The position numbers and the translations under genes were made by a program. Under the pieces are notes generated by a model. That model saw only the letters and a program-made list of their open reading frames with translations. It was not told the DNA's origin and did not search any database. Below are positions 3,906-44,400 of a DNA stretch of 64,000 nt, one piece after another. Numbering within the stretch: the stretch's first letter is position 1; every line of letters begins with the position of its first letter. Source of the stretch: an uncultured Bacilli bacterium. Lineage in GTDB: Bacteria; Bacillota_I; Bacilli_A; RF39; UBA660. Location: NCBI GenBank assembly GCA_947629235.1, contig CANRCX010000001.1:46374-110373 (forward strand), read 5' to 3'.

Positions 3906-3920
3906 ATGAAAGGAGACTAT

Positions 3921-20605: not shown

Positions 20606-20917
20606 ATGACAGATAATATGGGTATGTACCAAGGATATAGTGTTGAAGGTAGTGCAGAATTAAAAGTTACTCCAGATAAAATGACTGAAGGCTCTTCTTG
20701 TTGTATGGAAGCACCTATGATGTGCCCACCAGTTTATGAATGTCCACAAGAAAGATGTATTCATAAACAAATTATACATGAAGTACCACATGTACAACCA
20801 ATCAATACTAGAATAATTAATCATCATATATATAGACATACATATACACCTTGTTATACATGTACTGAAGAAAATGAAGTATGCAATGTTAATGTATGTG
20901 GTCCTAAATATATGTAA
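20606..20917 (+). CDS. Cys/His-rich small protein resembling inner spore coat protein CotD family
   Basis: 103 aa. Repeated H-x-x-V/I-x-P-V/I-N/H-like segments (IHKQIIHEVPHVQPINTRIINHHIYRHTY) and many Cys residues. AAAGGAG RBS. Confidence 0.4.
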   Translation: MTDNMGMYQGYSVEGSAELKVTPDKMTEGSSCCMEAPMMCPPVYECPQERCIHKQIIHEVPHVQPINTRIINHHIYRHTYTPCYTCTEENEVCNVNVCGPKYM

Positions 20918-22499: not shown

Positions 22500-22913
22500 G
22501 TGATTAATATGATAGAAAAAGCAGGATGTATCTTAATGGATACTAAAAATAAAAATATAGCAATTGTATATAGAAAAGAGTATGATGATTATTCTTTTCC
22601 AAAAGGTCATCTTGAAAAAGGTGAAACTTTACTTGAATGTGCTATTCGTGAAACTGAAGAAGAAACTAAAAGAATACCATTAATATTAGATAATAATGAA
22701 ATATTTGTAGAAAAATACAATGATTCTATGGGAAATTTATGTGAAGCACATTATTTTATAGCAAAAGATAATGGTCATAGTGATAATAAATCATTAGAAG
22801 TACATGAATTAATATGGAAAAATATAAATGAAGTAGATAGTATTTTAAGCCATGATCATACAAAAGAAATATGGAATAATGTAAAAGATATTGTTATTAA
22901 ATATATGGAGTAA
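22500..22913 (+). CDS. NUDIX hydrolase
   Basis: Nudix box readable as GHLEKGETLLECAIRETEEETK (Gx5Ex7REUxEExGU). The start may be one of the internal ATGs (MIEKAG… or MDTKNK…). Confidence 0.7.
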   Translation: MINMIEKAGCILMDTKNKNIAIVYRKEYDDYSFPKGHLEKGETLLECAIRETEEETKRIPLILDNNEIFVEKYNDSMGNLCEAHYFIAKDNGHSDNKSLEVHELIWKNINEVDSILSHDHTKEIWNNVKDIVIKYME

Positions 22914-22916
22914 AAT

Positions 22917-23363
22917 ATGAAGAAAAGAATAATACTATGGATACTTGTTATTTTATGGATGGGTATTATTTTTACTTTTTCTAGTTTTAATAGTAATGAG
23001 TCATCTAAACAAAGTAAAGGAATAATTAATTTCTTTATTGAAAATATAGTAGAAATATTTGATAAAGATTTAACAGAAGTAGAAAAAACTAATATTGTTA
23101 ATACACTTCATACTCCAGTTAGAAAACTTGCTCATTTTAGTATATATTTAGTTCTTGGAGTACTGGTTAGTTTACTCTTAAAAACATATAATCTTTCTAC
23201 TAAAAATATAATTTTAATGTCTATTTTAATATGTTTTTTGTATGCAAGTAGTGATGAAATTCATCAATTATTTATTAGTGGTAGAAGTGGAGAATTTAAA
23301 GATATATTACTTGATACATTTGGAAGTAGTGTTGGAATAGCTATATTTGGAAGAAGAAAATAA
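22917..23363 (+). CDS. VanZ-family membrane protein
   Basis: 148 aa with 4 TM helices. Conserved VanZ-like RKLAHFSIY…SDEIHQLFISGRSGEFKD. Confidence 0.65.
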   Translation: MKKRIILWILVILWMGIIFTFSSFNSNESSKQSKGIINFFIENIVEIFDKDLTEVEKTNIVNTLHTPVRKLAHFSIYLVLGVLVSLLLKTYNLSTKNIILMSILICFLYASSDEIHQLFISGRSGEFKDILLDTFGSSVGIAIFGRRK

Positions 23364-23449: not shown

Positions 23450-23695
23450 ATGTTAAATAATAAAGTTTTAGTAAATTTATATTGTTTATCATTAGGTAAA
23501 ACTTTTGAAGTATATTTGCCTATAAATGAAAAAATAGGAAATATAACAAAAATATTAAATACAACATTATTTGATTCAATTGATTCATCTAGAAATTATA
23601 TGTTTTTGAATTCAGAAACTGGAAATATATATAAAAATAATGAATTGATAAGAGAAACAGATATAAAAAATGGAACAAAAATAATATTAATGTAA
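23450..23695 (+). CDS. esaB: Type VII secretion ubiquitin-like protein YukD/EsaB
   Basis: ~81 aa from ATG 23450 (AGGTGG RBS 6 nt upstream). Beta-grasp-like pattern ending …ETDIKNGTKIILM, as in YukD (…ITNGDRLEIM). Sits directly upstream of essC. Confidence 0.6.
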   Translation: MLNNKVLVNLYCLSLGKTFEVYLPINEKIGNITKILNTTLFDSIDSSRNYMFLNSETGNIYKNNELIRETDIKNGTKIILM

Positions 23696-23715: not shown

Positions 23716-26700
23716 ATGAATATATATCTATTTGATGAAAATTCTATTATTACATTTTGTTTACCAAGTAAAAAAATTGGTAATTTTTGGCTTACAGATA
23801 ATGAAAATAAAAATATAGTAAATATAAAAAATGAAGATAATGATTGGATTATTAGTGGAAGCGAAAATACTAAGGTTATATTAGGAAATAATGAACAAAA
23901 AGCTATTTTAAAATCTAAAAATTATTATGCAGTTGAAAAAAATGATAAGAAATATCCTATATTTGTATATGATTCAAATGACAATACATTCAATCCATAT
24001 ATTTTTCCTGAAAATAAAACAATTAAAGTTGGTAGGATAGATGAAAATGATGTAATTGTTAATATTCCATATTTCCAAAAATTACATTTTTGTTTATCTT
24101 TAGAAAAAGGATACTATAAAATTGAAAAAATGCCTGAATCAATTATGTACTTAAATGATGAAATAATAAAAAATGATATAACCTATGCTAAAACTGGTGA
24201 TGTAATAAATGTATATGGAATAAAGTTTGTTCTTGCACACAATTTAATATTTATAAATAATCCCATTGATAGAGTATGTGTAAAAGATATTTTAGAAAAA
24301 ACATCATTTTCTGTTGATGATGAAATAACTAGTGAAGAAATAATTAATGAAGATTTATATAGTGATAAAGATTATTTTTTAAGAAGCCCAAGACTTAGAA
24401 AAATAATTGAAACATTTAAGTTAAATATTGATTCTCCACCAACAAAAGAAAATATGCAACAAATTCCATTAATTATGACTTTAGCACCAATGATTACTAT
24501 GGCAGCAAGTTCAATGGTAACTCTTTCAAATGCAATACAAACTGTAACATCTGGTGAAAAAACATGGAAACAAAATGCACCAACTTTAGTAATTTGTATT
24601 TCAATGTTATTAAGTATGCTTGTATGGCCTTTTGTAACTAGAATATATGAGCAAAAACAAAAAGAAAAAAGGGAGAATGAAAGACAAGAAAAATATAAAT
24701 CATATTTATCAAATAAAAAAGATGAATTATCAGTGGAATATAATATGCAAAAAAGAATATTAGAAGAAAATTTACTTTCTACTGATATTTGTTATGATAT
24801 GATATTAAATAAAAGAAGAACACTTTGGGAAAGAAAAATAGAAGAAAGTGACTTTTTAACAGTTAGACTTGGTAAAGGTGAAATACCATTTGATGCTGAT
24901 ATATCATATAGAAGTGAAGACTTTACAATGGATGATGATAATTTAAAAAAGATGCTTGATGAATTAATAAAGTCATATAAAACATTAACAGATGTTCCAA
25001 TAGGATACTCTTTTTCTTCTAATAAATATACAGCTGTGAGTGGACTTAATCCTAAATATGTATATTTTGTAAATAATTTATTATTACAGATGATGGCATT
25101 TCATAGCTATGATAATTTAAAATTTGTAATATTTACAAATAAAAAAAATCAAAAAAGATGGAAACATTTTAAAGACTCTCCATATTGTTTTTCTGATGAT
25201 AAATATTATAGATTTTTTGCTACTAATACAGAAGAAATGCAAGAAGTATCAAATTATTTGAAACAAATATTCAATAATAGACAAACTTTATCAAATAATG
25301 GTAGTGAAAATGAAAGAATAAATAATTTTTCTAAATTTAATACATATTATTTATTTATTATTGATGATATAGATTTAGCTAGAAAAATAGATATTGTTGA
25401 TAGTGTTTTAGATGAAAAAAAGAATTTAGGTTTTAGCATTTTAGTTATAGAAGAAAGACTATCTAAATTACCAAGTCAAATAACTAAATTTATAAATATT
25501 GGTGATAAAACATCTGTTGTTATTAACAGTGAAAATAATGATCAAATTAGATTCAATGATGAACTTAAAAATTATAATATGGATTTAGTAACAAATACAC
25601 TTATGAATTTACCATTATATATTGATAATAATATAAAACAATTGCCTAATTCAATAACATTCTTGGAGTTATTCAGTGTAGGTCAAATTGATCAATTAAA
25701 TATTCTTAATAGATGGAAAGATAATGATCCTACTAAGTCGTTAAAAGCTGAAATAGGCGTTAATGAAAATAATGATATATTTGTGTTAGATTTACATGAA
25801 AAAGCACATGGTCCACATGGACTTATTGCTGGTATGACTGGTAGTGGTAAATCAGAGTTTATAATTACTTATATACTTTCTATGGCAATTAATTATAGTC
25901 CAGAAGAAGTCGCTTTTGTATTAATTGATTATAAGGGTGGTGGTCTTGCTGGTGCTTTTGTTAATAATGAAACAAAAGAAAAATTACCACATGTAGTAGG
26001 AACAATTACAAATTTAGATAAAGCAGAAATAAATAGAGCTCTTTCAAGTATTCAAAGTGAGCTTAGAAGAAGACAAACTAAATTTAATGAAGTAAGGGAT
26101 AAATTTGGTGAAAGTACAATTGATATATACAAATATCAAAAATTATATAGAGATGGTATGATTAAGGAAGCTATTCCACATTTAATTATAGTTTGTGATG
26201 AATTTGCAGAATTAAAAGATCAACAACCAGATTTTATGGATGATTTAATTAGTACTGCTCGTATAGGTCGTTCACTTGGAGTACACTTGATTTTAGCAAC
26301 ACAAAAGCCAAGTGGAGTAGTAGATTCACAAATATGGTCTAACTCTAAGTTTAAAGTTTGTTTAAAAGTTCAAGATAAATCAGATAGTATGGAAATGATA
26401 AAGTGTGATTTGGCAGCCGAACTTAAAAATGTTGGTAGATTTTATTTACAAGTAGGATATAATGAATATTTTGCAATGGGTCAAGCTGCTTGGGCTGGAG
26501 CACAATATTATCCAAATAAGGAGTATAAAAAACCAGTCGATAAAAATATGTATTTTATAAATAATACAGGTGCTATAAAAAAAGCATTAAATAATAATTT
26601 TGCTAAAAAATTAGTAAAGTCAGAAGGAGAAGAACTTACATCTATTGTAAAATATGTAATAGATATAAGTAAAAATATTGATATAGATGTAAAACAATTA

Positions 26701-28305
26701 TGGTTAGATAGAATACCAAATAAAATATTGATTCAAGATTTATTTAACAAATATAATTATGCTAAAGAAAGATTTAATATAAATCCAATAATAGGTGAAT
26801 ATGATGATCCAGAGAATCAATTACAAGGATTACTAACTCTTCCTATAACAAGCGATGGTAATACTGTTTTATATGGAATTGCTGATAGTGGAAAAGATGA
26901 ATTTTTGTCTACTTTGGTTTATTCTATAATAATGACTTATGATACAAGTGAAGTTAATTTATATTTATTAGACTTTGGTGCTGAAACATTGATTAATTAT
27001 AGTGAAGCACCACAAGTTGGTGATGTAATATTAAATGGTAATGATGAAAAATTAGAAAATTTAGCTAAAATGTTAAATAATGAAATGAATAAAAGAAAAA
27101 AATTATTTATTTCATATAATGGAAATTATAGAGATTATATTAAAAATAGTGGGAAGACACTGCCTAATATCATTGTAATAATAAATTCTATTGAAGTACT
27201 TACTGATACTTATCAAGATTATATAGATAAATTAATACCTGTAGTAAGAGAAGGAAGTAAATACGGAATTAACTTTGTAGTAACAACAAGTAGTCAAAAT
27301 AATATTAAGTTTAAAATAGCACAAGCTTGTAAACAAATTTTAACTCTTCAATTAAACAATGAAAGTGACTATAGAGATTTGTTAGGAAAAACAAATGGGC
27401 TTATACCATCTTCATGTTTAGGAAGAGGACTTGTCAAATTAGATAGAGTATTAGAATTTCAAACAGCTTTTATAACTAATGATGAAAGTTCATTTGTTAA
27501 AATAAAAGAATTAATAAGTTTACTTAATGAAAAAGGTATTAATAAAGCAAGAGAAATACCAGTTATGCCAGATATTATTAAATTAGATAGATTTAAAGAT
27601 AAATATTTAGGTATAGATACAATACCAATTGGATTAACTAAAGAAACATTAGTATCAAGTTTATATGATTATTCTAAAAATGTTGTTAATATTATTTCTT
27701 CTAATGAAATGGAAAGTATGAGAGAATTTATATTAAATTATTTAAAACTTATTGAACAAAATAGTAATAAGTTTAATAGAGTAGTAATAGATGCATGTAA
27801 TTATTTTGAAAACTTTAATTATAATATAAATTTAATAAATGATAAATTTGATTCTGCAATTGATTCATTAAAGAAAATTGATGATAGTTTCCAACAAATA
27901 ATTGAGAAAAACAATATGAATTTAAGAAGTGTTAAAAATCAAATGAATAGTTTAATAATTATAATTGGATTTGATAAATTCTTAACTAGATTAGATGATG
28001 CTCATAAAGAAATGTTTAAAAATATTTTGAAAAATCAAAAAGAAATTTTAAAATTATCATTTGTATTAATTGATATACCATCTGCATTTAAAAAATATGA
28101 ATATGAAGAATGGTATAAAGATAGCATTACTGGAAACGATGGATTATGGATTGGAAATAATATTTCACAACAATTTGTTATCAAAACAACAATTCAACCA
28201 AATAGTATTAATAATATTGGAAATGGTTATGCAGTTTCAGTTAAAAATGGTATGCCAATTGTTATAAAATTAATAAATGAAATAAAAGTCAAAAAAAGAG
28301 AATAA
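23716..28305 (+). CDS. essC: Type VII secretion system ATPase EssC/YukB (FtsK/SpoIIIE family)
   Basis: 1529 aa. N-terminal FHA-like region. Two TM helices (~aa 250-300). First ATPase domain with HGPHGLIAGMTGSGKSE Walker A and LIIVCDEFAEL Walker B. Two further degenerate P-loop domains (GIADSGKDEF…). Confidence 0.85.
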   Translation: MNIYLFDENSIITFCLPSKKIGNFWLTDNENKNIVNIKNEDNDWIISGSENTKVILGNNEQKAILKSKNYYAVEKNDKKYPIFVYDSNDNTFNPYIFPENKTIKVGRIDENDVIVNIPYFQKLHFCLSLEKGYYKIEKMPESIMYLNDEIIKNDITYAKTGDVINVYGIKFVLAHNLIFINNPIDRVCVKDILEKTSFSVDDEITSEEIINEDLYSDKDYFLRSPRLRKIIETFKLNIDSPPTKENMQQIPLIMTLAPMITMAASSMVTLSNAIQTVTSGEKTWKQNAPTLVICISMLLSMLVWPFVTRIYEQKQKEKRENERQEKYKSYLSNKKDELSVEYNMQKRILEENLLSTDICYDMILNKRRTLWERKIEESDFLTVRLGKGEIPFDADISYRSEDFTMDDDNLKKMLDELIKSYKTLTDVPIGYSFSSNKYTAVSGLNPKYVYFVNNLLLQMMAFHSYDNLKFVIFTNKKNQKRWKHFKDSPYCFSDDKYYRFFATNTEEMQEVSNYLKQIFNNRQTLSNNGSENERINNFSKFNTYYLFIIDDIDLARKIDIVDSVLDEKKNLGFSILVIEERLSKLPSQITKFINIGDKTSVVINSENNDQIRFNDELKNYNMDLVTNTLMNLPLYIDNNIKQLPNSITFLELFSVGQIDQLNILNRWKDNDPTKSLKAEIGVNENNDIFVLDLHEKAHGPHGLIAGMTGSGKSEFIITYILSMAINYSPEEVAFVLIDYKGGGLAGAFVNNETKEKLPHVVGTITNLDKAEINRALSSIQSELRRRQTKFNEVRDKFGESTIDIYKYQKLYRDGMIKEAIPHLIIVCDEFAELKDQQPDFMDDLISTARIGRSLGVHLILATQKPSGVVDSQIWSNSKFKVCLKVQDKSDSMEMIKCDLAAELKNVGRFYLQVGYNEYFAMGQAAWAGAQYYPNKEYKKPVDKNMYFINNTGAIKKALNNNFAKKLVKSEGEELTSIVKYVIDISKNIDIDVKQLWLDRIPNKILIQDLFNKYNYAKERFNINPIIGEYDDPENQLQGLLTLPITSDGNTVLYGIADSGKDEFLSTLVYSIIMTYDTSEVNLYLLDFGAETLINYSEAPQVGDVILNGNDEKLENLAKMLNNEMNKRKKLFISYNGNYRDYIKNSGKTLPNIIVIINSIEVLTDTYQDYIDKLIPVVREGSKYGINFVVTTSSQNNIKFKIAQACKQILTLQLNNESDYRDLLGKTNGLIPSSCLGRGLVKLDRVLEFQTAFITNDESSFVKIKELISLLNEKGINKAREIPVMPDIIKLDRFKDKYLGIDTIPIGLTKETLVSSLYDYSKNVVNIISSNEMESMREFILNYLKLIEQNSNKFNRVVIDACNYFENFNYNINLINDKFDSAIDSLKKIDDSFQQIIEKNNMNLRSVKNQMNSLIIIIGFDKFLTRLDDAHKEMFKNILKNQKEILKLSFVLIDIPSAFKKYEYEEWYKDSITGNDGLWIGNNISQQFVIKTTIQPNSINNIGNGYAVSVKNGMPIVIKLINEIKVKKRE

Positions 28306-28425: not shown

Positions 28426-29043
28426 ATGAATCATAAAGTAAATAATGTACAAAATTTATTTGATGATGCTCGAACTTTGTATATGTCTGTAGTTACAGGT
28501 GGGGCTCCTTATTCTGCTGATACAATAATTACTAATTTATCAACTGGAATTGATATATTAAAAAATTGTTGGTTTGGTAAAGATGCTGGAGTTCAAATTC
28601 AAAATTTAGTAGTTGTTCATAATGCAATGGTTGCAGTAAGAAATTCTTTAGGATTTTTAGCTGAAACTACTACTAAAATTGCATCTAATTATAGAGAAAT
28701 ACAAAATTCTAATGGTGCAGGTCTTGAAACATTAGTTCCAGTTACAAATGAAAATAGAACAATTCTTGGTAGCTATAGTGATATGAGAGATACTATTAAC
28801 ATTTCTCCAGAAGCAAATAATGGAAATCAAAAAGTTGTAGCTGCAAATGGTGAAATTGATAATTTCATTAGTAATGTAAGAAAATATTTTGACCAAATTA
28901 TGAATAATTGGACAGCTGGACCTGGAAGAGAAGAATTTCAAAATGAATTTAATACTTTTGTAAGTAGTGCAAATAAATACAAATCAGTATTAAATGAAGC
29001 ATCACAAAGTATAGCAACTGCTATAAAAAATTATGGAATGTAA
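28426..29043 (+). CDS. WXG-motif helical protein; candidate T7SS substrate or toxin chaperone (WXG100/Lap-like)
   Basis: 205 aa, helical. W-x-G motif in KNCWFGKDAG near residue 50. Located immediately 3' of essC and 5' of the giant toxin. Strong AGGAGG RBS. Confidence 0.4.
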   Translation: MNHKVNNVQNLFDDARTLYMSVVTGGAPYSADTIITNLSTGIDILKNCWFGKDAGVQIQNLVVVHNAMVAVRNSLGFLAETTTKIASNYREIQNSNGAGLETLVPVTNENRTILGSYSDMRDTINISPEANNGNQKVVAANGEIDNFISNVRKYFDQIMNNWTAGPGREEFQNEFNTFVSSANKYKSVLNEASQSIATAIKNYGM

Positions 29044-29048
29044 TAATA

Positions 29049-29072
29049 AGAAGCAATTTTGCTTCTTATTTC
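29049..29072 (+). terminator. Weak terminator-like hairpin
   Basis: AAGAAGCA-attt-TGCTTCTT followed by ATTTCC (short U-tract). Confidence 0.35.
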
Positions 29073-29124
29073 CTAAGTTGAATAGTATATATTCTATTTA
29101 GGAAATAAGAAGGAGAGTGATATT

Positions 29125-29568
29125 ATGGCATCTTCATCATATTGGGCAGGAAGACTAAATGAAGCAAAAGCATTAAAGGCAAAAGCAGAAGAAAGATTAA
29201 AAAAATTAGAAGAACTAAAAGGAAAAATAGATCCAATTCCAGAAGCATTAGAATCAGTAATTGATACTTTTCAAAAAATAGGATTTAGTTTATCTGCAGT
29301 TTGTCCAGCTGGTTATCCAATAGATAATGGAAGTTATAATAAAAATGCAGATGATTTGCAGACTGCAGAAAGTGATTATCTTTCATTAATAAGTGAATGT
29401 GCCAATCAAATAGAGGCTGAGAGACTCGATATTAGAGATTTTGATAATTCGATTACATACTATCAAAATCAATATGATATAGCTGTTGAAGCAGAAAGAC
29501 AGGCATATTTAGCATCATTACAAAATGCGAATAATAGTAAAAAGAATAATACTAGTACAAAAAAATGA
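29125..29568 (+). CDS. Small helical hypothetical protein (possible toxin-associated accessory)
   Basis: 147 aa, predicted coiled-coil/helical. AGGAG RBS. Sits between the WXG protein and the toxin gene. Confidence 0.45.
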   Translation: MASSSYWAGRLNEAKALKAKAEERLKKLEELKGKIDPIPEALESVIDTFQKIGFSLSAVCPAGYPIDNGSYNKNADDLQTAESDYLSLISECANQIEAERLDIRDFDNSITYYQNQYDIAVEAERQAYLASLQNANNSKKNNTSTKK

Positions 29569-29589
29569 AAAAAATAAATAGGAGTTAAT

Positions 29590-32500
29590 ATGAGATGCAT
29601 AAATTGTGGAAAAGAAATAGATGTTAGTTATGGAATGGTAATGTGTCCATATTGTGGAAGAATATTGGATGATAAAATAGATAAAACAGATTATGAAAAT
29701 GCATATAATGAATTTTCAAACGAAAGAGAAGAATTAAAAAAAAACAATAAAGATAATGATAAGCCAATAACAAATGAATTTAATAAAATGGATGATAATA
29801 CCAAACTAAAAAAAGCTATTGTAGGTGGACTAGCAACTACTGCTTTTGCAGCAAGTGCTGGAAGTCTTTATGCTGCAAATAAAAATATTAACAAAAGTAA
29901 TAAAGAAAACAAAAATAAAACTTTTCCAGATGATAATATTAACAATGTTGTTATAAATGATAACGATGAAATAGAAGAAAATGCAGACAATATATTAGAT
30001 GATGATTTATTTGATTCTAACGATGTGACTAATGAAGAAGACAATATAATAGTTGATAATAATGAAAATTTAGATACAAATAATAGTAGCCAAGCAGCTA
30101 AAGATAATGGTATAGATTATAACCCAAATGCAACTCCTTCTAAACCAAAAAAAAGTACTTCAAAAAAAGTAACATCCAAATCAAATAATAACAAAAATTC
30201 AACTACTACTTCAAAAGATGAAAATAGTAATGATAATAATTTAAATAATGAAGATCAAATAATAACAGATGAAAATATATCAGAAAACGAACAAGATTCA
30301 TCATCAGAAGAAACAGAAGATGATATATTTAAAAATCCAAATGAAGATGATGATACATCAAATAACGAACCTGATATAGATTCTGATAAATCAGATGAGA
30401 ATATTACTGATAATGAAGAATCTAATATCGATACATCAGAAGAAGGATTTGAAAATTTATCTCCATATCCAGCAACTACAATATCAAATAATACTAATTA
30501 TACAAATGATTCGTCATATAATAGTTCATCATTTTCGGTAGATTATTTTCATCTAGAAAATGCTATATCTTTAATAAATAATGCAAATGATTCTTTTAGT
30601 AATATAGTATCATTAACTTCTGATATAAATACTGACGGATTAAATTTACAAACATCTGTAGCCTCAGCTAATGCTACTATAGAAAAATGTTTTGGAAATG
30701 CATCTGGAAGTAAAGTTGGAGTTTCTGCTGGTACGGCATCTCAATTAAACAAATTAAGATCAGATTTACAAAAAATGGATCCAGATTATGATTTTAATTA
30801 TGATTATTATAAATATATGAATTTAGGTTATTTATCAGAGCAAGAAGGATGGAATTCTGATGAATTTAAAAAACAAGAAAGTAGTTTAGAATCAAGTTTA
30901 AGAAGTGAAATAGGAGAAAGAAAAAAAGAGTATGAAGGAAATACTAAAAAGATAGAATTTTTAGACCAAGTTATTGAATCAATAGATATTCAAAATGAGG
31001 CATTCGAAAATTATTATAAAAATTTAGTTGATATTGAAACATTTACTGCTGTAAATCAGTACGTATCTGATAGAATGAATGATTCTACTATACCTGCTAA
31101 TTCTACATATGAAAAATATATTGATGAAAAAGTACAAGAATTAAAAGATTTGAATGCAGAAAATGAAAAAAAATATAATGAATTAGAGAAGGCTAAGCAA
31201 AAAAATAAAAATGATATAAATACTAAAAATGGAACAGAAAATACTTCTTCTGAAGAAGAACTTACTGTTTCAAAATACTCTGATGGAACATATGCATATT
31301 TAGATGAACAAAGCTTACAATTATTACAATATTATACTAATTATAAGTATTTAAATGCATGTAATGAGAGTAATTCAATTTCATCAATCCAAAGTCAAAT
31401 ATCATCATTAGAAACTAAATTAAAAATGAATCAAGATAGTTTGAATTCTGGAATTGTTTATGAGAATGGTTATCCAACTGTTATGTCTAATGATGAAAAA
31501 ACTGAATTAGAAAATATAAATAAAAAATTAAGTCAAGAAAAAGATGATTTAAATAATAGAATTAATCAAATAAATGAATCTTTTGAAAGTATTCTTAAAG
31601 ATTATTATGATGCTAATGCTGAATCAATTTATAGAATACCAGAAATAAATAGAAAACCTGAACAAAAAGATTTCTTACTTTCAAGAGATAGTTATGTTGC
31701 AACTTTACAACAAAAAGATTTGAGAAATGAAATTCAAGAATATCAACAATATATAGAAGATATACAAGAAGAAATAGATAGTTTATCAGAAAAAGCAGCA
31801 GGAGCATATGCAACAAATGTATCTTATAATAGTTCAGAATATTCTGGAATAAATTATTATGCAAATTATAAAGCTGCTTTAAAATATGGATATGGTTTAG
31901 AGTATTTAGATGAAAAAGAACAAGCTAGATATAAATTTTTATTAGAAACTGTTTCTTCACTTGAAGAAAAAAGTGCCATTGCTTTAGATGCAAATAATAA
32001 ATTAGAAGAATTAAAACAACAATTAATAATGCAAAGAAGTGATTATAGTAAGTATTCTAATTTTAATAATATAAAAGTAGAAAATGGATTTTTTGGTGGT
32101 TTAGTTTTTAGAGATGCTACCACTAATGAAAAATTAGATTTGTCTAAAGAAGAACAAGCTGTAATTTTAGCAATGAAAGGCAGTAACTCTACAAATGGTA
32201 CAGTAAATGAATATATAAATTATTTAAAAAACGGAAGTGAAAATTTATCTTATGATGCTTTAGGTGTTATAGCATATAATATGAATAAATCAAAAGAATT
32301 TGAGGGATATGATTCTAACTTTGCTTCTAGTTTTGATTATCTTTATGATCAAGGTGCAAGAATACTTGGAAAACAAATGGCAGATGAATTTACTACTAGA
32401 TTAGATAATTGTCCTGATATATTTGATTGGGTTTTAGTTGCAGATGAGGCATTAGAAGATGGATTGACTGGTTTCTTCCGTGGATTTAAAAATATATTTT

Positions 32501-35500
32501 GTGCGGATGGAAGAGCAGATGCTAGAGATTATAAACCAATGTTTATAACAGATTATATTAATAATTCTGATCAATATTGTGGACTTTATAAAACAATTCT
32601 TACAAGTGAATATGAAATTACAAATAGTATAGGAAATATGTTACCATCTATGTTAGTTACTTTAATACCTGTTGTTGGTCCTGCTGTTGGTTTAATTTCT
32701 TTAGGTGTTTCTGCTGCAGGTAATGCTAGAGAACAAGGATTACAACAAGGCATGAGTCAAGCTTCAGCGTGGATGTATGGTGTTCTATCTGGTGCTTCTG
32801 AAGCTTTACTTGAGAAGTTCCTCGGAGGTATTCCTGGTCTTTCAGATATGTCAAATGTTGTTGGAGTTCATGGACTTGCAAGAATATTTAAGGCTGGATG
32901 TAGTGAAGCTAGAGAAGAAATGTTACAAGAATTCTTGGATCCAATATTTAAATTTGTATCAACAGGTGGAGAAATAAGAGAAAATATAAGTGTAGAAAAT
33001 ATTTTAAAAGCTGGAATTTATGCTTTTATAACTGCAGGAATTTTAAATGGTGGAAATGTAGCATTTGAAGGAGTTTCATATAGATTAACAGGAGATTATT
33101 TAGCTCTTGGTACTTTAGCATCTTTAAATACAAATAGTGATTTATCTATAAAAGAAAATATTAAAAATTTCTTAAGAGATTTAAATGAATTCCAAAATAG
33201 GGATATTAAGTCTCTTGAAGAAAGCTTAATGGAAAATGAAGAAGTAAAAGCTGCTTATGAAGCTGCTAAGGCTGGTAAAGGTGATCTTGCATTTAATGAT
33301 TTTGTATCTAGAATTGTAGTTGAACAAGTTGTTAGTGAAAATAATGCATTATCACAAGAGTTATCTGAAGAAATTAAACAAAAAACAAAAGATTTACAAG
33401 ATTTAAGAAATAAAAATATTGATGGTAGATATAATGAAGATATAAGTAAATTAGAAAGTGAAATAAATGATTTAACAGAGCAAAGAAAATCTATTTATGA
33501 TAATGATATGACAATTCAAGATTCAATAGAAAGAGCAAAAGAAAAAGCTGTTCAAAATATCGATGACTTAATAAGAAGAAATAACAAGCATTTAGCAAAA
33601 GATTTATCAGAAGTATCAGCTGAAAATCTAATAGAATATTTAAATAATACAGAAATAACAGCAGAAAAAATAAAAGTGTTATTTGATAATATTAGTGAAG
33701 AAAAAATAAATAAGATATTAGAAGAAAAACCAGAATTAAAAGCATTATTAGAAGAAAATAGTACTGAAAGTACTGATGCAAGTGTAATAAATCATGAGTT
33801 GATAGATAAATTTAAAGCAACTAAAAATTATGCAGAAAAAATAGAATTAATAGAACAAATGAGTTCAGAAGAAATAGTACAATTATTAAAAGAAGACTCA
33901 CAAGCAAAATTAGTACTAGGAAAAATAAAAGATAATGCGAAATTAGCAGATGTAATAAACAAATCAAATTCAGAAGTACTAAATTCAATTTTTGGTCCAC
34001 CATTAAATGAATATTCTGATACAACAACACAATTAAAGGAAACATTAAAAGCAAAATTAAAAGGCCAAGCATTATTTGAAGGAACTATAAATAAATTAAG
34101 AGAATTAGGAATAGAAATAGAAGAAAGTGAAGAACAAATAGAAACTTCAGATGATACAACGGCTGAACCAACTTCTGAAATAGTAGATCATCATGATGCA
34201 ACAACTGAAGAAAGTGAGTCAAAAACTCTACCAAAAAGTGATAATAGTACTGAAAGTACTGATGCAAGCGTAATAAGTCATGAATTGATAGATAAATTTA
34301 AAGCAACTAAAAATTATGCAGAAAAAATAGAATTAATAGAACAAATGAGTTCAGAAGAAATAGTACAATTATTAAAAGAAGACTCACAAGCAAAATTAGT
34401 ACTAGGAAAAATAAAAGATAATGCGAAATTAGCAGATGTAATAAACAAATCAAATTCAGAAGTACTAAATTCAATTTTTGGTACACAATTAAATGAATAT
34501 TCTGATACAACAACACAATTAAAGGAAACATTAAAAGAAAAATTAAAAGGTCAAACATTATTTGAAGGAACTATAAATAAATTAAGAGAATTAGGAATAG
34601 AGATTGAAGAAAGTGAAAAAACAAGTCATGAATTGATAGATAAATTTAAAGCAACTAAAAATTATGCAGAAAAAATAGAATTAATAGAACAAATGAGTTC
34701 AGAAGAAATAGTACAATTATTAAAAGAAGACTCACAAGCAAAATTAGTACTAGGAAAAATAAAAGATAATGCAAAATTAGCAGATGTAATAAACAAATCA
34801 AATTCAGAAGTATTAAATTCAATTTTTGCTACACAATTAAATGAACATTCTGATGCAACAACACAATTAAAGGAAACATTAAAAGCAAAATTAAAAGGTC
34901 AAACATTATTTGAAGGAACTATAAATAAATTAAGAGAATTAGGAATAGAAATAGAAGAAAGTGAAAAACAAGTAGAAATTGCACATGATATAACAACAGA
35001 ACAAACATCTGAAATAGTAGATCATCAAGATACAACAACTGATAAAGCAGCAGAAGAAACAGATCATCAAGATACAACAACTGATAAAGCAGCAGAAGAA
35101 ACAGATCATCAAGATGCAACAATTAAACCAACACCAGAAGAAACAGATCATCAAGATGCAACAATTGAACCAACACCAGATGAAGCAGGTCAACAAGATG
35201 CAACAATTGAACCAACACCAGATGAAGCAGAACAACATGATACAATAATTGAACCAACAATAGAAGATGCAGGTCAACATGATGCATTAACAGATGCAAC
35301 AGCAAAAGTAGATGAGGCACATGATGTAGTAACAGATGCAGCAGAACAAGTAAAAGAAGCAGAGAATTTAGTGGATTCTTCATCTGAAAATAATCAAGCA
35401 TCTGTTCCACCAGTTCCACCAATAGTAGATATTGACTCAAATGCAAATCAATCACCTATAAAGATGGAAATATCTGAATTTTTAGCAAAATATAAAGGCT

Positions 35501-37206
35501 TTAAAAATATATATGAATTTAAACAAAAATTTTCATCATTGTTAAGTCAATGGGAAAGTTCTTTAACGGCTAGAGAAATAAGTTTAATTGAGAATTATAC
35601 AGGTAATAATGAAATGGAATTTGGAAATTATGCAACTGTAAATAGCATATTGAGAGGAATCTTTTTCAATTCACAAGATGGTAAAATTCACATTAAAAGA
35701 ATTGGTGGAGATGAAGATTCATATACTTTTTCAGAATTTGCTTATATGGTAAGGAGTAAATACTCTTCTGCAGCAAATCTTAGTGATGCAGATGCAATAA
35801 AGTTTTTTGTGAGAGGCCAAATACAAGCTATAAATGATTTATCTAATGCAATAAGTAAATTTGAACTTCCAGAAGATATATTATTGGAAAGACGCATTGG
35901 TGGTAGTTCATTAGTTAAACTCTTTAATATTGATATAAATAATGATTCTGTTGAGGATGTTGTAAGAAAAATAAATGATGGTGGTTATTTTAGAGATAAT
36001 GGTTTTATGAGTACTTCAGCCGGTAAATCTCCAGGATATGGAAATGTTGTACTAAAGCTTGGATGTAAAGCTGGTATGTCTGCAGTTGATATCACAGGAA
36101 ATAGTAAATATTCAGTTGGAGAAAATGAAGTCCTTGTAAACATTGGTACAACATTTAGAGCGGTAAATGCAGAAAGAGTAAATGGAAGATTAGTTATTTA
36201 TTTAGAAAGTATTCCAGCTAATAATATTCAAGTTGATAGTATGGATAGCTTAAAAACATTTATTTCTGATAATATAAATGCTTCACCAAATTCAATAGCT
36301 AAAACAATTAATAATTATTTTGAACAACAAATGAAAAATAATGCATCTAATTCATACTTAAAACAAAGCCTTTATTATGATTTATTAGAAATATCTGGTA
36401 TGCCTGGAATTGATCAAACAACTATGTCAGAAATATTATCTTCAGTAATTTCAAATAATAAAGAAATGAGATCAATAATATATGAAATGGCACAAGAAGA
36501 AATAAAGCAAAGTTTTAAAGATACATTAGATATACAAAATGATGCTGATATAAAAACATTAACAGATTTTATATTAGGAGAATCTTTTGTAGAAAATGGT
36601 GTTGGTAATCAAAATTGGGATGGATTTTTTAACTTTATATATGATAAAGTTAAAGAATCAGTTGCTAAATCTGCAAAAAATAAAGAAGCAATATTATGGA
36701 GTAAGCTTCCAACAATAGCATTAAATCAAATGTATTCTACAATTGAAAATACTACACTTGGAGATACTATGTACTTTTTAGATTTAGTTTATTCAAATTG
36801 GAATAGTCAATTTAGCACTTTACCACCATTAGAAGAATTCTGGGGTAAAATGTCTAAATTATATGCAGAAGCATGTTCTAATTTAAAAGATGAAAATGGA
36901 AATCCAATAACAAAATTAAAATATATTTATCCAGGTCAAGATGCTATAGGTGAGTTATTTAAAAAAGAAGAATTACCTACATTGTTAGAAAAAGGAGTAA
37001 TAAAAACATTGGAAGTTGTTAAAGCTAATGTAGATGAAACAAATCCAGATTTACCTAAACTAACAAATGAAAAAACAATAGAAATAGATTTAACAGAATT
37101 AAGCAATTTCTATAGAAAGAATCTTAATAAAGGTGTTTCAAAAGATATTTTAATTGAAAAAGTTTATTCAAAATTCATTGAATTATTACATAAGGGAGGT
37201 TTATAA
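29590..37206 (+). CDS. Giant modular protein with C-terminal ADP-ribosyltransferase (iota/VIP2/C2-type, R-S-ExE) toxin domain
   Basis: 2538 aa. N-terminal CxxC…CxxC zinc ribbon (CINCGK…CPYCGR) then a TM helix (KLKKAIVGGLATTAFAASAGSLYAA). A D/N/S-rich linker, then a long helical region. A hydrophobic Gly-rich segment (aa ~1000-1150). Three ~116-aa tandem repeats, then TDHQD acidic repeats and a PPVPP motif. In the C-terminus the ART motifs read LLERRIGG (Arg, nt 35888-35893), FMSTSAG (STS, nt 36004-36024) and GENEVLV (ExE, nt 36118-36138). Confidence 0.8.
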   Translation: MRCINCGKEIDVSYGMVMCPYCGRILDDKIDKTDYENAYNEFSNEREELKKNNKDNDKPITNEFNKMDDNTKLKKAIVGGLATTAFAASAGSLYAANKNINKSNKENKNKTFPDDNINNVVINDNDEIEENADNILDDDLFDSNDVTNEEDNIIVDNNENLDTNNSSQAAKDNGIDYNPNATPSKPKKSTSKKVTSKSNNNKNSTTTSKDENSNDNNLNNEDQIITDENISENEQDSSSEETEDDIFKNPNEDDDTSNNEPDIDSDKSDENITDNEESNIDTSEEGFENLSPYPATTISNNTNYTNDSSYNSSSFSVDYFHLENAISLINNANDSFSNIVSLTSDINTDGLNLQTSVASANATIEKCFGNASGSKVGVSAGTASQLNKLRSDLQKMDPDYDFNYDYYKYMNLGYLSEQEGWNSDEFKKQESSLESSLRSEIGERKKEYEGNTKKIEFLDQVIESIDIQNEAFENYYKNLVDIETFTAVNQYVSDRMNDSTIPANSTYEKYIDEKVQELKDLNAENEKKYNELEKAKQKNKNDINTKNGTENTSSEEELTVSKYSDGTYAYLDEQSLQLLQYYTNYKYLNACNESNSISSIQSQISSLETKLKMNQDSLNSGIVYENGYPTVMSNDEKTELENINKKLSQEKDDLNNRINQINESFESILKDYYDANAESIYRIPEINRKPEQKDFLLSRDSYVATLQQKDLRNEIQEYQQYIEDIQEEIDSLSEKAAGAYATNVSYNSSEYSGINYYANYKAALKYGYGLEYLDEKEQARYKFLLETVSSLEEKSAIALDANNKLEELKQQLIMQRSDYSKYSNFNNIKVENGFFGGLVFRDATTNEKLDLSKEEQAVILAMKGSNSTNGTVNEYINYLKNGSENLSYDALGVIAYNMNKSKEFEGYDSNFASSFDYLYDQGARILGKQMADEFTTRLDNCPDIFDWVLVADEALEDGLTGFFRGFKNIFCADGRADARDYKPMFITDYINNSDQYCGLYKTILTSEYEITNSIGNMLPSMLVTLIPVVGPAVGLISLGVSAAGNAREQGLQQGMSQASAWMYGVLSGASEALLEKFLGGIPGLSDMSNVVGVHGLARIFKAGCSEAREEMLQEFLDPIFKFVSTGGEIRENISVENILKAGIYAFITAGILNGGNVAFEGVSYRLTGDYLALGTLASLNTNSDLSIKENIKNFLRDLNEFQNRDIKSLEESLMENEEVKAAYEAAKAGKGDLAFNDFVSRIVVEQVVSENNALSQELSEEIKQKTKDLQDLRNKNIDGRYNEDISKLESEINDLTEQRKSIYDNDMTIQDSIERAKEKAVQNIDDLIRRNNKHLAKDLSEVSAENLIEYLNNTEITAEKIKVLFDNISEEKINKILEEKPELKALLEENSTESTDASVINHELIDKFKATKNYAEKIELIEQMSSEEIVQLLKEDSQAKLVLGKIKDNAKLADVINKSNSEVLNSIFGPPLNEYSDTTTQLKETLKAKLKGQALFEGTINKLRELGIEIEESEEQIETSDDTTAEPTSEIVDHHDATTEESESKTLPKSDNSTESTDASVISHELIDKFKATKNYAEKIELIEQMSSEEIVQLLKEDSQAKLVLGKIKDNAKLADVINKSNSEVLNSIFGTQLNEYSDTTTQLKETLKEKLKGQTLFEGTINKLRELGIEIEESEKTSHELIDKFKATKNYAEKIELIEQMSSEEIVQLLKEDSQAKLVLGKIKDNAKLADVINKSNSEVLNSIFATQLNEHSDATTQLKETLKAKLKGQTLFEGTINKLRELGIEIEESEKQVEIAHDITTEQTSEIVDHQDTTTDKAAEETDHQDTTTDKAAEETDHQDATIKPTPEETDHQDATIEPTPDEAGQQDATIEPTPDEAEQHDTIIEPTIEDAGQHDALTDATAKVDEAHDVVTDAAEQVKEAENLVDSSSENNQASVPPVPPIVDIDSNANQSPIKMEISEFLAKYKGFKNIYEFKQKFSSLLSQWESSLTAREISLIENYTGNNEMEFGNYATVNSILRGIFFNSQDGKIHIKRIGGDEDSYTFSEFAYMVRSKYSSAANLSDADAIKFFVRGQIQAINDLSNAISKFELPEDILLERRIGGSSLVKLFNIDINNDSVEDVVRKINDGGYFRDNGFMSTSAGKSPGYGNVVLKLGCKAGMSAVDITGNSKYSVGENEVLVNIGTTFRAVNAERVNGRLVIYLESIPANNIQVDSMDSLKTFISDNINASPNSIAKTINNYFEQQMKNNASNSYLKQSLYYDLLEISGMPGIDQTTMSEILSSVISNNKEMRSIIYEMAQEEIKQSFKDTLDIQNDADIKTLTDFILGESFVENGVGNQNWDGFFNFIYDKVKESVAKSAKNKEAILWSKLPTIALNQMYSTIENTTLGDTMYFLDLVYSNWNSQFSTLPPLEEFWGKMSKLYAEACSNLKDENGNPITKLKYIYPGQDAIGELFKKEELPTLLEKGVIKTLEVVKANVDETNPDLPKLTNEKTIEIDLTELSNFYRKNLNKGVSKDILIEKVYSKFIELLHKGGL
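33760..34966 (+). repeat. Three near-identical in-frame tandem repeats (~348-nt core; ~116 aa) inside the toxin gene
   Basis: Units begin ~33760, ~34246 and ~34621 and each ends in GAAGAAAGTGAA. Their protein sequence (SHELIDKFKATKNYAEKIELIEQMSSEEIVQLLKEDSQAKLVLGKIKDNAKLADVINKSNSEVLNSIF…KGQTLFEGTINKLRELGIEIEESE) is nearly identical at nt level. Confidence 0.9.
35020..35290 (+). repeat. Short degenerate acidic tandem repeats (DHQDTTTDKAAEET / DHQDATIEPTPDEA)
   Basis: A 42-nt unit gatcatcaagatacaacaactgataaagcagcagaagaaaca is repeated exactly twice, followed by 3-4 diverged copies. Confidence 0.8.
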
Positions 37207-37207
37207 T

Positions 37208-37711
37208 ATGAATGCATTAACACAAATTAACACAGATTTATATGATAAGAGATTAGATATAAAATTCAATCCAGATTTATTAAATGAACTTGATTATGAT
37301 AGTAGGCATAAAGTGGAAAAAACTTTATTATCTTATTGTAAGCAAGGAATTGAAACATCATTTAAATATCTACAATATTTTAATACAATTAGTGAAGAAG
37401 ATATGATAACAGAAGAAGATATTTCAAAACTTTCATTACCATATCAGGTGGAAATTTATAGATTCTTATTTTTAAAAAGTAAAAATTTGGATATATTAAA
37501 TAAATTAATTAATTTATCTATGAATTCTTATAACGCTTTTTACCAGTTGTTAATGATATATAATTCTGATATAATAACTGATGAAGAAAAGGAAAAAATA
37601 AAATTAGCAATAGATAAGTCATTTGAAAATAATAAAACAGATATAAATTATAAATTTTTGATTGATAATTATATAGATGGTTATGATAATGATGATATAA
37701 AATTGTTATAA
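37208..37711 (+). CDS. Small helical protein immediately 3' of ART toxin; candidate immunity protein
   Basis: ~167 aa from ATG 37208 (GGGAGG RBS 9 nt upstream). The ORF-track start at 37154 overlaps the toxin 3' end and lacks an RBS. No recognisable family. Position is typical of a cognate immunity gene. Confidence 0.5.
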   Translation: MNALTQINTDLYDKRLDIKFNPDLLNELDYDSRHKVEKTLLSYCKQGIETSFKYLQYFNTISEEDMITEEDISKLSLPYQVEIYRFLFLKSKNLDILNKLINLSMNSYNAFYQLLMIYNSDIITDEEKEKIKLAIDKSFENNKTDINYKFLIDNYIDGYDNDDIKLL

Positions 37712-37730
37712 TATTAGGAGGATTTTAAAT

Positions 37731-37946
37731 ATGGAAAATAAGTATAGTAAATTTAAAAGTGATGAAGAAAATGAATTTACTACTGGTAATAAACGTGGTA
37801 GTTTAACACAAGAACAAATAAGAGAAGAATTGGAACAAAAATTACAGTCACAATTAAAAATGATTGATGACTGGGTTGCATCATCTTCAAGTCAAGAAGC
37901 AGATGAAGAACAAGAGCAAGAAAGAGAAGAAGGACTGCATAGATAA
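37731..37946 (+). CDS. Small acidic hypothetical protein
   Basis: 71 aa. Strong AGGAGG RBS. C-terminus is highly acidic (EADEEQEQEREE). The stop abuts the start of the ADP-ribosylglycohydrolase gene. Confidence 0.35.
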   Translation: MENKYSKFKSDEENEFTTGNKRGSLTQEQIREELEQKLQSQLKMIDDWVASSSSQEADEEQEQEREEGLHR

Positions 37947-44192: not shown

Positions 44193-44198
44193 TTAGAC

Positions 44199-44400
44199 AT
44201 ATTTCATTGACAAAGAGAGTAGTAAATTAAATTTTTAATTCAAGAGAGTTAGTGGTAGGTGTAAACTAATATTAAAATTGATTGAACTTGCTTTTTTAGA
44301 AATAACGTTTTCCGCGATAAGGAATTAAAGATGCATAAAACTTTATGAAATAAGGTGGTACCGTGGGCTTGCTCATCCTTAATTATAAAGTTTTTATTTT
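44199..44400 (+). promoter_or_regulatory. T-box riboswitch leader (Leu-specific) with intrinsic terminator
   Basis: Stem I elements AGAGAGTAG…; candidate specifier region GAACUUGC (CUU Leu codon). Conserved T-box core AAGGTGGTACCGTGGG. Terminator helix ACTTTATGAAATAAGG…CCTTAATTATAAAGT enclosing the T-box core, followed by TTTTTATTTT (44341-44400). leuS lies downstream. Confidence 0.7.

Follow-up and report, generated by a model that had tools for sequence, protein, structure and literature searches.

A giant putative toxin gene beside essC in an uncultured Bacilli bacterium, with tandem ADP-ribosyltransferase and CD38-like domains

Introduction

In this study, we asked what function can be assigned to a giant protein which an uncultured Bacilli bacterium encodes just downstream of essC, the gene for the ATPase of a secretion system of type VII (T7SS), and which of the genes around it belong to the same system. 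The DNA analysed is a stretch of 64,000 nucleotides (contig CANRCX010000001.1), referred to below as the window. A previous description made from the letters alone (the sequence-only reading) proposed that the protein is a modular toxin of 2538 amino acids, encoded at 29590-37206, with a C-terminal ADP-ribosyltransferase (ART) domain of the iota/VIP2 type. The gene itself could be verified: 29590..37206 on the plus strand is a single reading frame for 2538 amino acids, with an ATG start and an AGGAG ribosome-binding site 8 nt 5' of the ATG. We consider it probable that the protein is a polymorphic antibacterial toxin with two tandem NAD+-consuming domains, with matching antidotes encoded downstream and with the T7SS as its likely route of export.

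The ADP-ribosyltransferase domain

The two domains and the genes that follow them are, in their order along the DNA:

35425..36234, plus strand: R-S-E ADP-ribosyltransferase domain of the toxin, amino acids 1946-2215 (PF03496)
36235..37206, plus strand: CD38/ADP-ribosyl-cyclase-like (ARC-like) domain of the toxin, amino acids 2216-2538
37208..37711, plus strand: 167-amino-acid protein, candidate immunity protein of the ARC-like domain
37731..37946, plus strand: 71-amino-acid acidic protein, conserved solely on the same-organism contigs L002 and L003
37948..38910, plus strand: ADP-ribosylhydrolase (ARH) of 320 amino acids (PF03747)

Pfam and NCBIfam scans of the full-length toxin missed the ART domain, presumably because of the biased composition of the protein, and slicing was needed to reveal it; isolated amino acids 1941-2240 match PF03496 (ADPrib_exo_Tox) with E=4.5e-16 and 59.2 bits (cut-off 23.4). 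The R, STS and ExE motifs described previously are present in that order, as LLERRIGG at amino acid 2098, FMSTSAG at 2139 and GENEVLV at 2177, and they are conserved. Of the key residues (R2101, S2141-T-S2143 and E2178-x-E2180), three (R2101, S2141 and E2180) do not vary across the 21 homologues of alignment A2, in which E2178 has a conservation of at least 90%. The ART fold, for which structure prediction and Foldseek had been put forward as checks, is supported by both. The AlphaFold2 model of the domain has a predicted local distance difference test score (pLDDT) of 92.6 and a predicted template modelling score (pTM) of 0.88, and Foldseek matched it to 108 PDB chains at E<=1e-3, the best 50 of which are all R-S-E ARTs. 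The leading matches, at ~1e-11, are Certhrax (1.9e-11) and 8za7_B (2.6e-11, template modelling score 0.79 on the target), together with C3 exoenzymes, while iota-like toxins, CPILE-a, CDTa and C2-I follow lower, at 1e-9 to 1e-8.

When the domain was compared with PDB sequences, it matched Lmo0066 of Listeria monocytogenes (8za7_B) with E=2.5e-8 and Tre1 of Serratia proteamaculans with E=0.014 (6dre_B; 0.014-0.018 when 6drh_B is included), in alignments in which the STS and ExE motifs correspond; the match to PF01129, the eukaryotic arginine ecto-ARTs, is weak (E=0.0015, 18.3 bits, cut-off 22.3). We conclude that the toxin contains a genuine R-S-E ART of the PF03496 family, which also includes C3, iota, C2 and VIP2. 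As far as sequence matches can tell, its closest relatives are interbacterial ARTs and not binary actin toxins. The earlier placement next to iota, C2, VIP2 and SpvB thus stands at the level of the shared Pfam family PF03496 but not for the nearest relatives, since Lmo0066 and Tre1 are nearer by sequence. The ExE motif, together with the DraG/Tri1-type hydrolase encoded downstream, suggests that the enzyme would be specific for arginine.

Homologues were collected by an exhaustive phmmer search over 1.84 billion cluster representatives, and the 86 matches obtained split into two separate domain families, ART and ARC-like. In the relatives of the first family, the ART domain mostly forms the very C-terminal end of proteins whose N-termini differ; by eye, these are LXG-like in P0005 and P0035 (a Pfam LXG match is absent) and PAAR/DUF4280-like in P0033. 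A C-terminal ART domain on varied N-termini is a layout typical of a polymorphic-toxin warhead. The domain also resembles phage ART families in PHROGs.

The terminal domain

The ART domain does not end the protein. Its motifs do not fall within the C-terminal ~170 residues, where the sequence-only reading had located them, but 358-440 residues before the end, and the true C-terminus is formed by a further domain of 323 residues, the ARC-like domain, which that reading had overlooked in making the ART domain the terminal one. This domain has no match in Pfam (E<=10) or NCBIfam (E<=1), including Rib_hydrolase, and a word-indexed search with the C-terminal 598 amino acids found no relatives. Its family in the phmmer search consists of ~48 cluster representatives at E<=1e-10, almost all of them metagenomic, in which the domain terminates proteins of 700-3600 amino acids and also occurs as stand-alone proteins of 270-320 amino acids. 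Two members differ in that the domain is internal, namely P0020 (3607 amino acids) and P0021 (2498 amino acids), where ~2000 and ~420 unannotated amino acids, respectively, come after it; some members of the family may thus have at least three effector domains. From the family we built alignment A1 (25 sequences), of which a 7-sequence subset, A3, was used for the genome scan. A search of a 5.8-billion-protein index with A1 added only four extra metagenome proteins. The conserved motifs of A1 are ILWSK, TIENTTLG, SNWN, FWGKMSKLYAEAC and GELFKKEELP. By sequence, the ARC-like domain is a separate family without an existing library model.

The likeness to CD38 emerged when the A1 profile was compared with all PDB sequences, which gave 41 weak matches (E 0.06-1.8), 39 of which belong to the ADP-ribosyl cyclase family (38 are CD38 or Aplysia cyclase, and one is the Pantoea ananatis PAAR-ARC toxin, 9ro8; PMC12605009). 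In these weak profile alignments LWS pairs with LLWS of CD38 (W125), TxENT with TLEDT (E146) and FW..S..YA with FWKTVSRRFA (W189), and ELP of A1 is aligned with VELP of the Pantoea toxin; this places W2370, E2386 and W2418 of the window protein on LLWS, TLEDT and FWKTVS of CD38, respectively, and E2461 on the Pantoea VELP. For comparison, W125, E146, W189 and E226 were taken as the catalytic set of CD38. W2418 (W203 of the domain) and E2461 (E246) are invariant in the family, W2370 (W155) is at least 90% conserved, and the column of E2386 (E171) holds E or S in A1. These four residues are our candidates for the catalytic residues of the domain. In the Pantoea toxin and in Tac1, which is a T7SSb LXG toxin with an ARC domain made by Streptococcus parasanguinis and paired with Tci1, two Trp and two Glu, to which these four would correspond, are essential, and both toxins kill through NAD(P)+ depletion (PMC12356396; PMC12605009).

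The AlphaFold2 model of the domain (pLDDT 93.6, pTM 0.90) has the two-lobe ARC fold. With this model Foldseek returned only 9ro8 (E=0.066, probability 0.97); in rank, the MARTX NADase RDTND came fourth and 9ro8 sixth. We therefore concluded that amino acids 2216-2538 are a divergent domain of the CD38/ARC fold in which the helical lobe is enlarged.

In several members of the family, for example P0006, P0009, P0012 and P0014, Ser replaces E2386 (TISNTS). The corresponding residue, E146 in CD38 and E516 in Tac1, controls hydrolysis of the cyclic ADP-ribose intermediate (PMC12356396), and by likeness to Nac1 and to Tac1-E516A the Ser-bearing members might release cyclic ADP-ribose. The natural E/S variation in this family could offer a way to ask whether some bacterial members make this compound.

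Downstream genes and related loci

The three genes that follow the toxin gene are closely spaced. The first, for the 167-amino-acid protein, begins with an ATG 2 nt past the toxin stop and has the ribosome-binding site AAGGGAGG. Its product matches no known family, and homologues of it (E 1e-10 to 9e-25) lie directly after an ARC-like toxin gene in five of five independent loci. For the 71-amino-acid acidic protein, a homologue was not found in these five loci (L004-L008). The ARH gene, on the same strand as the toxin gene and 742 bp past its stop, encodes a protein which matches PF03747 with E=5e-74. The best NCBIfam match of this protein is the Tri1 ADP-ribosylarginine hydrolase, at 214 bits and so under the equivalog cut-off of 490, and its PDB matches include Lmo0067 (8za7_A, 6e-70) and Tri1 (6dre_A, 9e-49). 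Given this match to Lmo0067 and that of the ART domain to Lmo0066, both members of the Listeria ART-ARH effector-immunity pair, of which the structure is solved, have homologues here. The ARHs of L004, L006, L007 and L008 are 51-54% identical to that of the window. Judged by eye, neither the ARH nor the 167-amino-acid protein has a signal peptide.

Loci L004-L007 come from GTDB metagenome-assembled genomes (MAGs), whose labels are 'bacterium', 'uncultured Bacilli' and, in one case, a Muribaculaceae bin; the relatives are from gut MAGs. Locus L008 comes from a 304-kb metagenome contig. The arrangements are as follows:

Window: ART then ARC-like, followed by the 167-amino-acid protein, the 71-amino-acid protein and the ARH
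L006 and L007: ART then ARC-like, followed by a 167-amino-acid homologue and an ARH
L005: ART then ARC-like, followed by a 167-amino-acid homologue, with no ARH within 8 kb
L004, gene 1: an ARC-like domain alone, in a protein of 807 amino acids (L4_807) with no space for an ART, followed by a 166-amino-acid homologue
L004, gene 2: ART only, a fragment, with an ARH three genes further on and the 167-amino-acid homologue absent
L008: ARC-like then ART, the reversed order, followed by two fusions of a 167-amino-acid-like N-terminus with an ARH

An ARH accompanies the ART domain in four of the five ART-bearing related loci. Locus L004 is a natural dissection of the system, with the ARC-like domain going with the 167-amino-acid family and the ART domain with the ARH. 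In L008, the toxin of ~2430 amino acids has an N-terminal LysM, a Gly-rich centre, an ARC-like domain just 30% identical to that of the window and a terminal PF03496 ART domain (E=1.9e-20). It is followed at L008:10155-13331 by two consecutive genes, for 531 and 526 amino acids, in which the 167-amino-acid family is fused to an ARH (PF03747 E~1e-70); such fusions can be read as a 'Rosetta stone' joining the two antidote modules. On these grounds, the 167-amino-acid protein is a candidate for the cognate immunity protein of the ARC-like domain and for a new family, and the ARH is a candidate for an enzymatic immunity function against the ART domain. With both, which the sequence-only reading had passed over, encoded downstream, the protein is best understood as an antibacterial toxin with cognate immunity. 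Furthermore, the ART domain is also present in at least 10 of the 16 ARC-like proteins examined, and we therefore regard ART and ARC-like domains with two antidotes as a recurrent, selected unit.

The neighbourhood of the two L004 genes is itself of note: in L004:21-9405, three toxin genes resemble one another in their N-termini or share segments, whereas their C-termini differ (ART, unknown and ARC-like). Small genes for candidate immunity proteins and an ARH gene are set between them, and this polymorphic-toxin array looks like cassette shuffling.

The long N-terminal region

The ART domain is preceded by a very long carrier with the following parts:

29590..29667, plus strand: zinc ribbon CxxC-x12-CxxC, amino acids 1-26, with the cysteines at amino acids 3-22
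29815..29877, plus strand: Ala/Gly-rich weakly hydrophobic segment, amino acids 76-96 (Kyte-Doolittle 19-residue mean 1.28)
29881..32337, plus strand: low-complexity linker rich in N, D, S and E by composition, amino acids 98-310, then amino acids 311-916, a putative coiled coil according to the sequence-only reading
32338..33234, plus strand: Gly-rich hydrophobic central region, amino acids 917-1215, conserved in giant relatives
33745..35424, plus strand: ~116-amino-acid repeat in three copies, then 14-amino-acid acidic T/D/E/Q repeats (amino acids 1796-1945)

The N-terminal zinc ribbon recognized in the sequence-only reading is borne out: its pattern uses four of the 12 cysteines of the toxin and is far above the chance expectation of 2e-5, and there is a weak match to Zn_ribbon_3 of Pfam (E=0.003, under the cut-off). 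It is missing from all relatives examined. The proposed transmembrane anchor, here amino acids 76-96, fared less well, as the hydrophobicity there is marginal; the segment is a possible membrane helix. The sole strongly hydrophobic segment of the toxin is internal, at amino acids 1022-1040 (Kyte-Doolittle mean 2.16). Amino acids 98-916 have no family match and no similarity to any relative and are lineage-specific; nor is any similarity detectable between amino acids 300-930 and the N-termini of the relatives.

The Gly-rich central region is 24-32% identical to segments of P0022, P0028, P0014, P0006, P0009, P0012, P0016 and P0021 and is also present in the L008 toxin. The Pfam family PT-TG was not matched in this region, and a word-indexed homologue search with it found no relatives. 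We propose that it may be a membrane-interaction or translocation module. The tandem and acidic repeats reported previously are real at the DNA level, with two 348-bp units at 97% identity plus a third 116-amino-acid copy, and a 42-bp unit repeated 6.7 times. The copies of the ~116-amino-acid repeat are each marked by HELIDKFKATKNYAEK, at amino acids 1402, 1564 and 1680. The repeat region as a whole (33745..35424) is likely a spacer.

Genes between essC and the toxin

Upstream of the toxin gene the window encodes:

23450..23695, plus strand: 81-amino-acid protein directly 5' of essC, candidate EsaB/YukD-type protein (TsxB)
23716..28305, plus strand: EssC, a T7SSb-type FtsK/SpoIIIE ATPase of 1529 amino acids (TIGR03928)
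28426..29043, plus strand: 205-amino-acid WXG100-like protein with two hairpins
29125..29568, plus strand: 147-amino-acid protein with W-A-G at amino acids 7-9 and a good ribosome-binding site

EssC matches TIGR03928 (T7_EssCb_Firm) with 988 bits, above the cut-off of 778, and PF01580 with E=2e-44, and its stop lies 1285 bp before the toxin start, in agreement with the distance of 1.3 kb given by the sequence-only reading. That reading had also noted two small proteins before the toxin, one with a WXG motif, and the 205-amino-acid protein does match PF06013 (E=8.4e-7, amino acids 136-203) and TIGR03930 (E=1.4e-9, two matched stretches). It has W-F-G in its N-terminal half and the WXG100 match in its C-terminal half, and so looks like a fused pair of WXG100 hairpins, compared with the usual monomer of ~100 amino acids. 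After the stop of its gene, at ~29049-29075, a GC-poor hairpin followed by a T-run can be read directly in the DNA. The 147-amino-acid protein has no family match and is a possible targeting or co-secretion partner. The 81-amino-acid protein has no Pfam or PDB sequence match to YukD; it is 37% identical (E=9e-20) to an 87-amino-acid protein encoded directly after essC in L008, and by its size and position it may be an EsaB/YukD-type component.

The association of toxin and ATPase is not confined to the window. The EssC proteins of L008 and of the window match with E=2e-184, and in both places the toxin gene has the first-substrate position after essC; the N-terminus of the L008 toxin is not signal-peptide-like by eye. 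Judging from this position, T7SS export of the toxin is most likely. Of the T7SSb effector layout which had been claimed for the locus, the first-substrate position after essC and the WXG100-type proteins hold, and the Lap proteins could not be found.

On the other side of essC, the gene for a 467-amino-acid membrane protein and the small gene adjoining essC are separated, within 22500-23363, by genes for a NUDIX hydrolase (PF00293, E=1e-12) and for a membrane protein of the VanZ family. It is speculative that the NUDIX enzyme disposes of ADP-ribose from the ARH or the ARC-like domain.

Discussion

The sequence of events that we propose begins in the producer, which, given the observed gene order, would make toxin and antidotes together. 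There the 167-amino-acid protein would bind and block the NADase cleft of the ARC-like domain, as synteny, the fusions and the analogy to Tci1 and ARCimm suggest, and the ARH, by homology to Tri1 and Lmo0067, would remove ADP-ribose from self proteins. The toxin would then leave through the adjacent type VII system, with the 205- and 147-amino-acid WXG100-like or helical proteins as putative co-secretion partners, and its Gly-rich hydrophobic centre may aid the crossing of the target membrane. In the cytoplasm of a rival bacterium, the fold and catalytic residues of the ART domain point to the modification of an arginine of an essential protein, while the ARC-like domain would deplete NAD(P)+ as Tac1 and the Pantoea ARC toxin do. 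Two independent activities would call for two resistance functions in the target, and this need may explain the joint retention of the ART and ARC-like domains.

Several observations weigh against this proposal. An LXG domain (PF04740) was not matched in the whole toxin or in slices of it, just as the sequence-only reading had remarked. Lap1/Lap2 (DUF3130/DUF3958) were likewise not found, the upstream small proteins giving WXG100 matches or none. To our knowledge, T7SS substrates that combine a zinc ribbon with an Ala/Gly-rich segment have not been described, and the N-terminus of the toxin could direct Sec insertion via the signal recognition particle (SRP) instead. Among the window proteins scanned, no profile match to EssA, EssB, EsaA or YukD was obtained; on the other hand, T7SS variants are documented whose shared parts are limited to the ATPase, a ubiquitin-like protein and a WXG100 protein (PMC11217815). 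On the side of the antidotes, no Imm74 immunity protein was found, and the 167-amino-acid protein is without a Pfam match. Locus L005 has both toxin domains and lacks an ARH within 8 kb, and the pairing of antidotes with domains is based on one dissected locus (L004) plus the fusions.

The N-terminus lends itself to a different view, in which the zinc ribbon is cytoplasmic, amino acids 76-96 are inserted by SRP/Sec and act as a signal anchor of N-in orientation, and ~2440 amino acids are outside the cell as a surface-anchored ecto-enzyme. Such a protein would be a counterpart of CD38 and of mammalian ecto-ARTs that acts on extracellular NAD+ or on the surfaces of neighbours, whether bacterial or host cells, and the nearness of the T7SS would be coincidental. 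CD38 is a type II membrane ecto-enzyme, and a lysine-flanked Ala/Gly-rich segment does follow ~50 residues after the CxxC-x12-CxxC pattern; the lack of a detectable LXG or other T7SS targeting domain, the weak PF01129 match of the ART domain and the gut origin of the relatives are also in keeping with it. However, the hydrophobicity of 1.28 is low for an anchor, the relatives share the toxin and immunity modules and yet none has such an N-terminus, and the adjacency to essC is repeated in L008. The apparent lack of signal peptides in the ARH and the 167-amino-acid protein would furthermore make both cytoplasmic, which fits a toxin active inside bacteria, and we regard the ecto-enzyme as unlikely. 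We are only slightly less sceptical about a further reading, namely a new non-LXG class of T7SS-associated effectors, tethered to the membrane of the producer by the zinc ribbon and the weak transmembrane helix as a Gram-positive analogue of CdiA. This is doubtful; if it were true, ~1900 residues of linker, repeats and conserved hydrophobic translocation module would extend two NAD+-dependent warheads of independent mechanism for delivery by contact, and one immunity or resistance gene would be insufficient for the target.

A further question is whether both downstream proteins counter the ART domain alone, one as binder and one as eraser, with the CD38-like domain in an accessory role such as NAD+ binding, regulation or receptor binding. 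The Bxa ART, which has the two immunity proteins Bsi and BAH, provides a precedent (PMC11699363), the Imm-ARH fusions of L008 would also fit a bifunctional Tri1-like anti-ART protein, and several family members have Ser at the position of CD38 E146. Nevertheless, L4_807 and P0002 have the ARC-like domain only, and it is L4_807 that the 166-amino-acid homologue follows and not the ART-only toxin of L004. The ARC-like domain is, moreover, terminal in many proteins, that is in the 'toxin' position, and W2418 and E2461 are invariant, which leaves us with little confidence in the accessory role. The actin-directed, anti-eukaryotic toxin of the iota/C2/VIP2/SpvB type which had been suggested before is very improbable. 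The shared Pfam family, the ExE motif and the Foldseek matches to CPILE-a, CDTa and C2-I at ~1e-9 to 1e-8 speak for it; yet its best sequence relatives are Lmo0066 and Tre1, there is one ART fold where the A components of binary toxins have it in duplicate, the neighbours scanned include no gene for a binding/translocation component, and cognate ARH and immunity genes are present. Members of this ART family are also carried on N-termini which by eye, without profile matches, resemble the bacterial delivery modules PAAR or LXG. We give least credence of all to a protein of a phage or conjugative element, of the 'polyvalent' or tape-measure-like kind, whose ART would be injected along with DNA. 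Great length, a Gly-rich hydrophobic centre, repeats and the match of the ART domain to PHROGs phage ART families would suit such a protein, but no relatives were found in 2.9 million viral contigs, and around the locus lie rpoB, rpoC, ffh, RNase J, iscS and thiI, without any integrase or structural gene. This idea was dropped on finding that the carrier has no PHROGs match.

The antibacterial dual-enzyme toxin that we favour has its closest counterpart in Lmo0066-Lmo0067 (8za7) of L. monocytogenes, which is encoded in a T7SS locus just 3' of the core genes, as here (PMC5417603). The window differs from it in that the ART domain is internal to a 2538-amino-acid protein, with a second toxin domain after it, and in that the ARH is parted from the toxin by two extra genes. 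No paper describing 8za7 was found in the accessible literature. With Tre1-Tri1 of S. proteamaculans the window shares the R-S-E ART with its ExE motif and the ARH. Tre1 is a type VI secretion system (T6SS) ADP-ribosyltransferase that modifies FtsZ, and Tri1 is an ARH-type bifunctional immunity protein, of which the Imm-ARH fusions of L008 are reminiscent; delivery there is by a T6SS PAAR protein, whereas here the ART is part of a giant protein adjacent to a T7SS, and the window ARH reaches 214 of the 490 bits set as the Tri1 cut-off. In comparison with Tac1 and the Pantoea toxin, in which the ARC domain has ~130-150 amino acids, the ARC-like domain has ~320 amino acids and includes a big additional N-lobe of helices. 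It comes after an ART in the same polypeptide and is partnered by a new 167-amino-acid family and not by Imm74, in a setting where an LXG domain and Lap genes were not found.

The binary actin toxins (iota Ia, C2I, VIP2 and CDTa) and C3 have the Pfam family and the catalytic motifs in common with the window ART and match it structurally at 1e-10 to 1e-8. Their sequence similarity is nevertheless below that of Lmo0066, and no duplicated ART fold is present here, as acidic repeats come before the domain and the ARC-like domain after it. By eye the window toxin also lacks a signal peptide, an immunity ARH is present, and no binding/translocation component resembling protective antigen was found among the open reading frames (ORFs) scanned, which cover 5.5-43.5 kb of the window. 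MARTX and other multi-effector toxins (e.g. RDTND NADase, 8ka2) differ in that RTX repeats, the autoprocessing cysteine protease domain and a type I secretion system are absent here and the setting is that of a Gram-positive T7SS with immunity genes.

The elements of this system are of known kinds, namely ART-ARH pairs such as Tre1-Tri1, Lmo0066-Lmo0067 and Bxa-BAH, and ARC toxins, a prediction of 2012 (PMC3482391) that was borne out in 2025 (PMC12356396; PMC12605009). A fusion of the two is not mentioned in the accessible literature as far as we could find. What we consider new is an architecture of ART and ARC in tandem whose antidotes are paired or fused, the divergent CD38-like family with its enlarged helical lobe and the candidate immunity family of the 167-amino-acid protein, both of which current domain libraries miss, and, beside essC, a carrier of giant size that has no LXG domain and starts with a zinc ribbon. 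Both the ART toxins with ARH immunity and the NADase toxins of the ARC/CD38 fold have been recognized only recently in warfare between bacteria, and their occurrence on one polypeptide, in either order and with antidotes adjacent or fused, argues for selection of dual NAD+-linked killing. Giant non-LXG proteins would thereby join the likely T7SS-associated effectors of uncultured low-GC gut Bacilli.

Genomic setting and minor observations

The window has a G+C content of ~25%, and this together with the surrounding genes named above identifies it as chromosomal DNA of a low-GC member of the Bacillota; no phage or plasmid context was found around the locus. Rfam matches to a ribosomal L10 leader at 3792-3909 and to a T-box leader at 44198-44383, 5' of an 800-amino-acid ORF at 44770, fit a Bacillota chromosome. 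A scan for promoters and terminators gave 161 promoter-like sites against 168 expected and is uninformative at 25% GC.

A single-protein scan of species-representative genomes gave no match. Exact or near-exact copies of the toxin gene (99-100% identity) are found only on three short, low-coverage ENA metagenome contigs (L001-L003). One of these, L001 (an ERZ27249360 contig), covers window positions 29582-37892 at 99% identity in a short-read assembly of 2.9x coverage. The 116- and 14-amino-acid repeats are collapsed in it, and six indels lead to calls of 930 and 1317 amino acids. Collapse and gene split are probably assembly artefacts, and they illustrate how public protein sets come to contain such giant repeat-bearing toxins in pieces.

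Between rpoC and ffh, in DNA of 18-22% GC, 13627-18456 encodes a 1609-amino-acid protein with superfamily 1 (SF1) helicase-type domains (AAA_11, AAA_12 and AAA_30) and a C-terminal MTES_1575/DUF559 endonuclease-like domain, and this region may be a defence or mobile island. Lastly, a 103-amino-acid Cys/His/Pro-rich ORF at 20606-20917 has a very weak match to the spore coat protein CotD (E=0.4), which, if real, hints at spore formation by the organism.

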